Shown here: piece after piece, positions 61,799-63,892 of the stretch
Position numbering within the stretch: the first letter of the stretch is position 1
Layout: every line of letters begins with the position of its first letter
Program-made: the position numbers and the translations under genes
Assembly: GCF_053078305.1 (NCBI RefSeq)
Contig: NZ_CP166879.1
DNA length: 64,000 nucleotides
Direction: 5' to 3' (one strand)
Notes under the pieces: model-generated
Databases searched by the model: none
Told to the model about the DNA's origin: nothing
What the model saw: only the letters and a program-made list of their open reading frames with translations

Positions 61799-63766
61799 TC
61801 ATGCCGCGACGTCCGCGTTGTTCACTTCCACCTTCACACTGTCAATCAGCAGCGTATATGCCGCCGCCTTTGATATGTCTGTCAGTTGCAGTTTGTCCGC
61901 CGACCCTGATGCCGGAGATTTCACCAGTGTGAACGGTGTACCCCGTTTCTCATCCAGTACCGGCATCACCTGAATGCTGTTGTTTCCGGCAAACTCAAAA
62001 GCCAGTGTGTGCCATCCGTTATCAAAGACCCCGAACGTATCCAGCTTCGCATTCTGCTTCTTGTGGTACATCGCGTTCAGGTTCGTCGCATCCGTCTGCA
62101 GGAAGAAGGACATCAGCATGTCGTTGCCTTCCTCTGACAGCGTCACTCCCTCCGGCAGGGACGGCAACTGCCAGTAAATACCCAGGGCAAACTGATTCGG
62201 CACCAGTGCGCCCGGCACCTTAAACCGCACGCTCACACGTCCGCCTTTCTTCAGCAACTCTGCTCCCTGCCCGGCGGCATCATGCTCCAGAAACCAGATG
62301 TGGCTTTCCGGTTTGTTCAGTTGCAGGGCCTTACCACCGGTGGCACCCTCATCACTGACCACAGCCTCAGCGATGTTTTTATCAACACTGTCTCCGCTCG
62401 CCGGTTTGTGATAATAGCGCCAGCCCTGTGATGCCAGGTCTTCACCGGACGCCAGCAGACTCATCAGGGTTCGGTTACTGACCGGGGCTTCCGGCTCTCT
62501 CTCCGGGCCTTCACCGGAAGGTCCGGTGGGCTTCACCGTATCAGGCTGTTTTCCGGTAATGAATTCAGCGGTTCTCCCGGCATGCACCAGAATCGCCGTT
62601 GCCAGACGGTCGGAAATAATCCCACGGCGTGCCCAGGTGCTGAAATGGCTGGCCCTGTCCACAGATGTCCAGGTCTTCTGGTCATTACGCCACTTTGAAC
62701 CGTAATAACCGACGGCTTCCAGGTCCGGGTCTTCTGCCGGGTCATTGGTCTGCACATTCGCACCATTCTCATCCGTCATTAACGGTACAAAGAAAATGTT
62801 CTGCGACTCCTTACCCTTATACCCTCCGTATACTGATGCATACCCTTCCGCATGACGCTGCTTCCAGAAATACGTTGTGTCCCCGCAAATCCACGGTACC
62901 GTTGATGCGCTGCCTCCTGTGCACTGTGATGCCTGACCGGCAAGGTCCGTTCTGAACTGATTCACCATCGCACTAAACAGCCCCGGATGCTGCGCATGCG
63001 TCCCCACTGCCGCATCACCTTCTCCCTGCATCCACACCACCGCAAGCAGACGGTTTTTCGGGTTCTTCGCCAGTGCGGCTTTAGTCCGGCTCACCAAATC
63101 CTGATACAGCGGCTTACCCACACCCCAGCGCAGTGAATTTTCCGATGCACCGGCTGATTCGCTGTATGTGCCGTCTGCACCCGTTGTGAATGCCGAAGCA
63201 CCACGGCAGCACGGAACCAGCAAAATGCCCGCATTCGCCGGTATAAACGGCAGCAGTTTTTTGGCGATATGCAGCCCCTGCCCCACGGTTCCGTACTGCC
63301 CCTTTGACAGGTCCGCTTTCGGATGGTTAAGACGGCTCATGTCCTGCACATCATGCAGACAATGGTCCGCCGGAATAATGTCGTTATACTTACAGGCGGC
63401 ACCGCCCGGTGTCACCGTACTGCGACGCGCCAGCTGCTTAATACGCGGGTCCGGACGGTCATATGTCTCCGGCAGCGGAAGGCCTTCACCATACGACATG
63501 CCGTTTGACTGCCCCGCCAGAACAACAACAAAGTAATACTCCGGTTCGCTGGTGGCGCTGATAACTGTGCCTTCTCCATCCGACGGCTTCACCACCACAG
63601 GTGTGGTGACATCACCTTCCGCCGCAATAGCCTGCATCAGGGTATAAGGCGTGATGGCCACCGGACTGCCAAATGGCTGCCACCCCTCCTTCAGTTTTTG
63701 AGTCAGTCGCTCCGCAAGGTCTGACGGCGACGCCGCCCTGACCACGTCATAGTGTTTAAATGCCAT
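61799..63766 (-). CDS. prophage NanS-p-type sialate O-acetylesterase (SGNH/SASA domain)
   Basis: 655 aa; esterase motif VVLAGQSNGMSYG; GGGAGG SD; located upstream of the lysis genes where Stx phages carry stx and nanS-p. Confidence 0.8.
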   Translation of the reverse strand: MAFKHYDVVRAASPSDLAERLTQKLKEGWQPFGSPVAITPYTLMQAIAAEGDVTTPVVVKPSDGEGTVISATSEPEYYFVVVLAGQSNGMSYGEGLPLPETYDRPDPRIKQLARRSTVTPGGAACKYNDIIPADHCLHDVQDMSRLNHPKADLSKGQYGTVGQGLHIAKKLLPFIPANAGILLVPCCRGASAFTTGADGTYSESAGASENSLRWGVGKPLYQDLVSRTKAALAKNPKNRLLAVVWMQGEGDAAVGTHAQHPGLFSAMVNQFRTDLAGQASQCTGGSASTVPWICGDTTYFWKQRHAEGYASVYGGYKGKESQNIFFVPLMTDENGANVQTNDPAEDPDLEAVGYYGSKWRNDQKTWTSVDRASHFSTWARRGIISDRLATAILVHAGRTAEFITGKQPDTVKPTGPSGEGPEREPEAPVSNRTLMSLLASGEDLASQGWRYYHKPASGDSVDKNIAEAVVSDEGATGGKALQLNKPESHIWFLEHDAAGQGAELLKKGGRVSVRFKVPGALVPNQFALGIYWQLPSLPEGVTLSEEGNDMLMSFFLQTDATNLNAMYHKKQNAKLDTFGVFDNGWHTLAFEFAGNNSIQVMPVLDEKRGTPFTLVKSPASGSADKLQLTDISKAAAYTLLIDSVKVEVNNADVAA

Positions 63767-63865
63767 GAATCCTCCCGGTCGGGATAATGTTGTGAGTCAG
63801 ATAAGGGGCGGGCTGAAGTCCGGAAGTTACAGGACAATGGCAGGAGGAAGACTACAGCCCGCAAT

Positions 63866-63892
63866 ACGAAAAAGGCCGCGCAGTTGCGCAGA
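63866..63892 (-). terminator. tR'-like intrinsic terminator upstream of the late genes
   Basis: Minus strand CTGCGC-AACT-GCGCGG followed by CCTTTTTCG. Confidence 0.45.

Follow-up and report, generated by a model that had tools for sequence, protein, structure and literature searches.

A Terminator-like Hairpin Preceding a Prophage nanS-p Gene Lies in a Conserved Small-RNA Spacer and Is Predicted To Be Distinct from tR'

NanS-p esterases have been reported from Shiga toxin (Stx) and non-Stx prophages alike, with 7 to 10 reported in EDL933 and 5 in an O104:H4 strain, all reported active (PMC8065619, PMC10462455). Esterase activity was demonstrated for EDL933 and O104:H4 alleles (PMC8065619), and the proteins of enterohemorrhagic Escherichia coli (EHEC) were the subject of Saile 2016/2018 and Franke 2020, as cited in PMC8065619 and PMC10462455. 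The DUF1737 domain of NanS-p from phage phi24B binds and decorates the capsid (bioRxiv 10.64898/2026.04.10.717836). At the lambdoid cargo slot, Tree et al. 2014 described convergent small RNAs, of which EcOnc27/EcOnc05 are in the sense orientation and AsxR, AgvB, EcOnc03, and EcOnc08/21 are antisense (PMC4104026). In prophage PP2 of enteropathogenic E. coli (EPEC), PasD2 is an STnc100-like sense small RNA encoded immediately upstream of the esterase gene; it is 172 nucleotides (nt) long with a 3' end at position 741328, as set by RNA-seq coverage and Northern blotting. The lambdoid terminator tR' (the lambda 6S RNA terminator or the StxS-generating terminator of Stx phages) is an intrinsic-terminator-like hairpin on the late strand. 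Here the region upstream of a nanS-p gene was analyzed in a 64,000-nt stretch of contig NZ_CP166879.1 (the whole stretch is called the window). A terminator-like hairpin precedes this gene, and an earlier note on the same DNA had taken it for tR' with an empty toxin slot.

The locus is very probably an ordinary prophage nanS-p gene behind a small-RNA spacer. The hairpin would be a secondary terminator and not tR', and stx, which cannot be seen from the window, is likely absent. The elements of the spacer and leader are as follows.

63869–63891, minus strand: intrinsic-terminator-like stem-loop (6 bp, loop AACT) followed by CCTTTTT, homologous to the PasD2 terminator and predicted not to be tR' (fold, conservation, alignments).
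63767–63868, minus strand: 5' leader of nanS-p with the ribosome-binding site GGGAGG at 63771–63776 and a long stem GCGGGCUG...CAGCCCGC (sequence reading, fold).
63884–63913, plus strand: putative antisense RNA promoter consisting of TTGCGC (inside the hairpin), an 18-nt spacer, and TATTAT (alignment with the Sp5 and Sp10 cassettes).
63914–63993, plus strand: predicted gene for an EcOnc08-type antisense Hfq-binding small RNA with a start at about 63919 (alignment to the EcOnc08 Hfq-CRAC peak of Sakai Sp4).
63993–64000, minus strand: last 8 nt of a sense STnc100 gene (RF02076; EcOnc27/EcOnc05/PasD-like), cut by the window end (Rfam on the 99.99% identical contig L011).

The position of the hairpin was established by comparison with related prophages. 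In the VT1-Sakai locus, the end of stx1B at 4720 is followed by the start of homology to the window at 5001, the hairpin at 5106 (about 385 nt past stx1B), and the nanS-p start at 5231. This locus also has an annotated late promoter pR', a qut site, and two tR' terminators, which are found at 2975–3266, before stx1A. The same layout, with the hairpin downstream of stxB, is present in two Stx2b prophages and in Sakai Sp5 (Stx2a). The gene for Q or a DUF1133 antiterminator ends 2.1–4.3 kb upstream of nanS-p in the 10 relatives where it is visible. The twin of the window, IMG/VR contig L011, is 99.991% identical over 11.3 kb, and STnc100, not pR' or qut, lies directly past the window end in this contig. 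The hairpin does have the G+C-rich stem and T-run of tR' on the late strand, in a weak form (−9.1 kcal/mol), and like tR' it is presumably read through by Q-modified polymerase. It differs from tR' in not being adjacent to pR', qut, and Q: the homologous hairpins follow stxB and STnc100 and lie at least 2 kb downstream of tR', past the cargo. From these alignments the hairpin is identified as something other than tR', the expected place of which, immediately following pR' and Q, is at least about 1.9 kb past the window end. The earlier claim that the esterase gene sits directly behind tR' is therefore not borne out, although a terminator-like hairpin about 100 nt upstream of the gene, also part of that claim, is present 110 nt before the ATG. 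Because its homologues lie after stxB in Stx prophages, a hairpin near nanS-p says nothing about an empty toxin slot. Its homology to the region past the toxin genes makes it a part of the nanS-p leader, with or without a preceding toxin operon.

In Stx phages, homology to the last 234 nt of the window, those upstream of the nanS-p ATG, is found past the toxin genes. A conserved module of about 500 nt emerges when the intergenic region is aligned in full (alignment A3), and this spacer is conserved across Sp4, Sp5, Sp15/VT1-Sakai, Stx2b, and non-Stx prophages (alignments A1, A3, and A5). By homology, the 234 nt are the distal part of the roughly 500-nt spacer that parts the variable cargo ("moron") slot from nanS-p. 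The order of elements read from the alignments is a sense STnc100/EcOnc27/PasD RNA, a convergent antisense RNA cassette, the hairpin at 63891–63876, and the nanS-p leader, which is mostly invariant in alignments A1 and A3. Rfam matches to STnc100 (RF02076) above the gathering score were obtained for L001, L002, L010 (two copies), L012 (two copies), L016, and L017, at 135–208 bits. The twin L011 gave a 5'-truncated STnc100 match of 87.1 bits (gathering score of 47) at locus positions 1–145 and model positions 58–206. This match ends at window position 63993, so that only 8 nt of it fall inside the window; an Rfam search of the window itself returned chance-level matches only (rimP, snoZ30). In Sp5 the Rfam AsxR match (RF02703) is antisense, directly after STnc100 and 282 nt from stx2B, which agrees with the published position (PMC4104026), and the conserved open reading frame (ORF) in that published account of the small-RNA locus is nanS-p. 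The window locus resembles the locus of Tree et al. 2014 in its position between cargo and nanS-p, the STnc100 partner, the boundary hairpin/promoter, and an antisense RNA with an intrinsic terminator. Tandem duplicates of STnc100, about 490 nt apart, were observed upstream of nanS-p at approximately 8290–8900 in L005, 3593–4289 in L010, and 9390–10086 in L012. Several non-Stx prophages show this duplication, among them a second prophage in the genome that contains the twin.

The published Hfq-bound peak EcOnc08 of Sp4 maps to window positions 63914–63990 on the plus strand. Relative to the whole 73-nt peak, the window has one 4-nt insertion and a few substitutions. The predicted antisense RNA of the window is UCGCCAGCUGAAAAAUUGAUUACUUCACGUUUUGUUGUUUAUUCCUUGCUGCCCGCAUCUCACCAUGCGGGCUUUUUUU. 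Its terminator is an 8-bp hairpin at 63964–63985 followed by a T7 run at 63986–63992, with a folding energy of −14.9 kcal/mol. Compensatory changes appear in this stem, from A-U to G-C between the window and Sp4, and from C-G to A-U in AsxR and AgvB. The same RNA, with small differences, is listed in an EPEC supplement of RNA interaction by ligation and sequencing (Fig. S5) as E2348C_1409.E2348C_1408.IGR. Its placement is like that of AsxR, AgvB, and EcOnc03: it lies antisense between STnc100 and nanS-p, with a shared promoter and an intrinsic terminator at 63964–63992 (alignments A3 and A5). The conserved 3' region of about 42 nt of these three RNAs (GTATCTCATGC..TTGCCCGAACCCA.TCGGGC) had no match in the window at up to 3 mismatches, and neither Rfam AsxR (RF02703) nor AgvB (RF02702) matched the window at E ≤ 1. 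Because this 3' region is absent, the window RNA is placed by sequence outside the AsxR/AgvB/EcOnc03 family; its body is G/U-rich and does not carry the CACAACA motif. A CA-rich sense sequence, AACAACAAAAC, was considered as an AgvB-like sense RNA and rejected, since AgvB and AsxR are antisense with another sequence, and the published sequences and alignment A3 put the RNA on the plus strand.

On the antisense strand, the cassette types share TTGCGC, a spacing of 17–18 nt, TAAAAT or TATTAT, a further 5 nt, and the RNA start. The distance from TTGCGC to the −10 box is fixed in four unrelated cassettes, with RNA 5' ends that were either mapped or inferred. The 5' ends of AsxR and AgvB were mapped by rapid amplification of cDNA ends, and the same TTGCGC and a TAAAAT box 5 nt upstream are found there (PMC4104026 supplement). 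By analogy, the antisense RNA of the window may be transcribed from a promoter at 63884–63913 with a start near 63919. A second Hfq-bound peak of Sp4, EcOnc21, aligns with window positions 63823–63906 on the plus strand. This stretch is antisense to the leader of nanS-p and precedes the predicted antisense promoter. The Northern size of about 271 nt for EcOnc21 implies a further antisense start inside the 5' end of nanS-p, and the sole candidate promoter found for it is ATGCCA, 17 nt, GATAAT at 63760–63788. The antisense slot is also modular. When window positions 63914–63993 were compared with loci L005, L017, L018, and L044, at least four unrelated RNA bodies (AsxR/AgvB/EcOnc03, EcOnc08, Z1323 type, and L044 type) were seen behind one hairpin/TTGCGC boundary.

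The hairpin itself reads CTGCGC-AACT-GCGCGG on the sense strand at 63891–63876, followed by CCTTTTT with a tail to 63869. The stem of 6 bp contains 5 G-C pairs and has a folding energy of −9.1 kcal/mol (z = −1.7), and 12 of 200 shuffled sequences fold equally well. Terminator-like sites in the surrounding 3-kb region number 8, against 3.0 ± 1.9 expected. By fold and shuffling the hairpin is unremarkable alone; the case for its reality comes from its conservation across loci. It is kept in 16 of 18 related loci (the first 18 fetched), and a pattern scan of IMG/VR yielded at least 120 further sites. Among the matches listed, a nanS-p start follows the hairpin in 110 of 120 IMG/VR sites, mostly 117–126 nt from the hairpin start. 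In alignment, the homologue of this hairpin coincides with the 3' end of PasD2, one of the EPEC small RNAs PasD1 and PasD2 (Pearl Mizrahi 2021; Zhu, Shabalina and Storz 2026); the PasD2 terminator is GGCTGCGCATTGCGCAGCC followed by a T8 run. EPEC PP2 has no antisense cassette, and the hairpin directly ends the STnc100-like RNA, whereas in the window locus STnc100 has its own terminator and the hairpin is about 100 nt further on. The PasD2 alignment, the longer stems of other cassettes, and a strand bias of the wobble pairs, both described below, favor a genuine sense-strand intrinsic terminator, present in the window in a short, weak form. As a secondary terminator it would be passed by Q-modified polymerase, and in a lysogen it would halt transcription begun at cargo or small-RNA promoters before nanS-p and the lysis genes are reached. 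The antisense small-RNA promoter would in turn use the TTGCGC of the hairpin as its −35 box.

The strongest alternative is that the hairpin terminates nothing and is conserved only as the −35 region of the antisense promoter or as a protein-binding palindrome. The fixed placement of TTGCGC 17–18 nt from the −10 box in the four unrelated cassettes and the weak stem of the window are both compatible with such a role. The T-run after the stem, however, is also conserved among the hairpin homologues, and in AsxR/AgvB-type cassettes the stem is lengthened to 9–10 bp with folding energies of −15 to −18 kcal/mol. In addition, the U·G pair in the window stem and the G·U pair of the Sp10 variant become A·C mismatches on the opposite strand. 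These wobble pairs fit the sense strand only, which favors a function in the sense RNA. With the homologous hairpin aligned to the reported 3' end of PasD2 as well, a purely promoter or binding-site role is considered rather unlikely, and a sense-strand terminator is preferred.

The content of the toxin slot was evaluated separately. No stx-like sequence was detected in the window by tblastn (best E = 0.1), and the toxin slot lies beyond the window end. Only 234 nt of sequence upstream of the ATG fall inside the window, and in Stx prophages stxB ends 510–525 nt upstream of nanS-p. The window thus stops about 280 nt short of the expected end of stxB, and the absence of stx cannot be read from it. 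The twin L011 extends 137 nt past the window and ends inside the repeated STnc100, probably at an assembly break in the repeat; a scan for the adjoining contig found none from that genome. These 137 nt are 97.8–99.3% identical to seven loci (L002, L005, L010, and L012–L015), none of which has stx in the 4–10 kb upstream. They are 87% identical to VT1-Sakai and give only a partial match to the Stx2b loci L008 and L009. Among the matches listed, hairpin sites with at least 900 nt of sequence upstream were surveyed; stx was found in 16 of 101 sites overall and in 10 of the 50 that have the cassette type of the window, leaving 40 of 50 without it. The closest relatives over the whole late region (H61 and H64) are non-Stx. 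On the basis of the flank of the twin, the cassette survey, and these late-region relatives, the prophage of the window is very likely non-Stx.

The cargo slot of the closest loci contains a DNA methyltransferase, three tRNAs, a second methylase-like gene, and two STnc100 copies; in other non-Stx relatives it contains TerB/DUF3927 or IraM. The slot of the window prophage would thus most likely lack stx and hold a DNA methyltransferase, tRNAs, and duplicated STnc100 copies. Of the earlier proposal of a non-Stx relative of Stx phages with an empty slot, the first half is probably right, as judged from the twin flank and the survey, and the second half does not hold in the relatives, where the slot is filled.

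Alternatively, the prophage may be an Stx phage with stxAB just outside the window and stxB ending about 280 nt past position 64000. Consistent with this possibility, the Stx2b prophages L003, L008, and L009 carry nanS-p alleles that are 96–98.8% identical, L009 has the exact terminal 60 nt of the window, and stx is upstream in the 10 of 50 same-cassette sites given above. The 137 nt of the twin, in contrast, match at 97.8% or better only the seven loci that show no stx upstream, with the lower identity to VT1-Sakai and the partial matches to L008 and L009, and the late-region relatives H61 and H64 are non-Stx. The second copy in the draft genome of the twin, 99.7% identical, likewise has no stx within 4.3 kb upstream. 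An Stx phage is therefore unlikely. The variant form of the antisense-terminator hairpin was tried as a predictor of stx and rejected, because L009 has the variant of the window together with Stx2b. Least probable by far is that the hairpin is tR' after all, with the late promoter and Q just past 64000 and nanS-p directly following an empty toxin slot: the hairpin is terminator-shaped on the correct strand and no stx lies within the window, but the homologous hairpins downstream of stxB and STnc100 in Stx1, Stx2a, and Stx2b prophages, the distant Q/DUF1133 genes of the 10 relatives, and the STnc100 of the twin contig right past the window end already contradict it.

Several observations weigh against the preferred interpretation of an ordinary nanS-p gene behind a small-RNA spacer with a secondary terminator. 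With 6 bp, −9.1 kcal/mol, and a run of only 5 T, the hairpin of the window is weak and by itself lacks significance; its stem is nearly invariant, so that support from covariation is minimal. The −35 box of the antisense promoter is poor (3 of 6 matches), and the promoter was missed by a consensus scan. The coordinates of the EcOnc08 peak are those of the Sakai version used in the paper, and the current Sp5 record is shifted by about 135 nt; the Sp4 mapping gives a clean RNA ending in a terminator, with consistent STnc100 coordinates. A Northern size of about 271 nt is reported for EcOnc08/21, compared with about 75 nt predicted here. The non-Stx assignment is statistical, and the terminal 60 nt of the window recur unchanged in at least one locus that carries Stx2b, L009.

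The gene downstream of the hairpin is a minus-strand ORF of 655 amino acids at 61799–63766 in the ORF listing of the window. Its features are given below.

61799–63766, minus strand: nanS-p coding sequence, prophage sialate O-acetylesterase (ORF, Pfam, PDB matches, DNA identity).
63617–63760, minus strand: N-terminal DUF1737 domain, residues 3–50 (Pfam PF08410, E = 1e-15).
62588–63556, minus strand: NanS-like SGNH/SASA catalytic domain with GQSN, residues 71–393 (3PT5 alignment, motif position).
61817–62377, minus strand: C-terminal lectin-like jelly-roll domain including DUF6645, residues 464–650 (6YP6, PF20350).

In the Pfam search, PF08410 DUF1737 was matched at residues 3–50 (E = 1e-15), PF03629 SASA (sialic-acid-specific acetylesterase) at residues 80–276 (E = 3.4e-12), and PF20350 DUF6645 at residues 505–618 (E = 5e-44). 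Residues 71–393 match residues 14–331 of the E. coli NanS/YjhS structure 3PT5 (E = 3.6e-118), with the GQSN motif (residues 85–88) in an aligned block, and residues 464–650 match the structure of the NanS-p C-terminal domain, 6YP6 (E = 8.9e-61). The product is thus assigned from its sequence as a NanS-p-type esterase with DUF1737, SASA/SGNH catalytic, and C-terminal lectin-like domains. The description of a 655-residue SGNH/SASA esterase with GQSN in the earlier note is upheld by the ORF, Pfam, and 3PT5, and the comparison with NanS-p and family models that it called for supports the NanS-p type through Pfam, 3PT5, and 6YP6. As a member of this family, the enzyme would strip 9-O-acetyl groups from sialic acids and so make mucin-derived Neu5,9Ac2 usable by the host. 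The EHEC proteins (933W L0105/z1466 and phi24B gp84/vb_24B_21) have in common with it the three-domain layout, the GQSN block, and a place upstream of S, R, and Rz. Capsid decoration by phi24B NanS-p was shown on a T=9 podovirus, whereas the window prophage has a lambda-like head.

E. coli prophage genes labeled SASA family carbohydrate esterase or DUF6645 domain-containing protein are 96–99.9% identical to this nanS-p at the DNA level. The gene with its leader was matched in 1,338 of 5,426 complete E. coli genomes, with a median of 4 places per matching genome, and the best identity to the query in complete genomes was only 96–98.6%. Look-ups of the exact NanS-p protein and of the 328-residue ORF described below gave no match. 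The nanS-p genes of O157 Stx1/Stx2a phages are about 80% identical over the 5' 1.2–1.4 kb of the query, and the 3' part has diverged. The draft genome IMG 2617271340 contains two nanS-p copies (L010, 1402–3367, minus strand; L011, 372–2340) that are 99.9% identical to that of the window. The L010 copy is a truncated ORF of 328 amino acids, and the L011 copy differs from the window by one 1-nt gap; these differences are either frameshifts or sequencing errors.

The genes that follow nanS-p on the same strand encode a DUF1378 protein, a DUF826 protein, a P21-type holin, a DUF1327-containing ORF, a lysozyme, a DNA methylase, Rz/Rz1, and the terminase subunit Nu1. Judged from these genes, nanS-p lies in a lambdoid prophage on the cargo-slot side of holin S, and the order nanS-p, small ORFs, S, R, Rz noted earlier for Stx-phage relatives is confirmed. 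Within the window, no protein-coding gene of the late region precedes nanS-p, and the lambda-like prophage is integrated next to tRNA-Ser/hyaA. The tRNA-Ser (anticodon UGA) at 33860–33947 on the plus strand, beside hyaA, marks the tail-fiber end of the prophage; in strain FHI_NMBU_10 another, non-Stx lambdoid prophage occupies the same site, between tRNA-Ser and yccA. The lysis cassette at 57914–60898 on the minus strand is interrupted. An ORF of 328 amino acids, with a DUF1327 match confined to its first 74 residues, lies between holin and endolysin, and an N6/N4 DNA methyltransferase of 311 amino acids lies between endolysin and Rz.

The plus strand at 61679–61797 carries a promoter close to consensus (TTGACA, 17 nt, TTAAAA) and, after it, a hairpin CCGCCAGC...GCTGGCGG with a T7 run. 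This hairpin ends 2 nt from the nanS-p stop codon in convergent orientation, with a fold of −21.5 kcal/mol (z = −2.7). In EPEC PP2 the esterase gene is flanked by a small RNA gene, PasA. The element at 61679–61797 matches PasA in position and orientation, but its identification as PasA was rejected because it has no sequence similarity to PasA; it is a positional analogue.

A further, speculative and on balance improbable proposal is that the overlap of hairpin and promoter at 63869–63913 acts as a bidirectional switch, with a GcvB-mimicking RNA, inverse coupling to the late genes, and a modular antisense slot. Under lysogeny, sense transcription would end at the hairpin, and the EcOnc08-type antisense RNA would be made from the promoter that contains TTGCGC; upon induction, read-through by Q-modified polymerase would occlude the antisense promoter. 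The EcOnc08-type RNA contains a G/U-rich, GcvB-like stretch, GUUUUGUUGUUUAUU, and for this reason it might mimic GcvB or target CA-rich host mRNAs and not sponge a host small RNA. If the proposal is correct, the output of host-directed small RNA would be inversely coupled to late gene expression, and the antisense slot would be a modular small-RNA cargo site with at least four interchangeable bodies behind one promoter.

The nanS-p genes of non-Stx prophages, the capsid role of DUF1737, and the small-RNA spacer have all been described already, and nothing in this locus falls outside known kinds; its importance is limited beyond correct annotation. For the scanning of such prophages, a hairpin close to nanS-p is not to be read as tR', and a window that stops within the spacer separating cargo slot and nanS-p does not allow stx to be called absent. 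The EcOnc08-type RNA binds Hfq in EHEC and EPEC data sets, and no function for it was found described in the small-RNA literature covered. If any part of this locus merits attention, it is the modular antisense small-RNA slot and the EcOnc08-type RNA.

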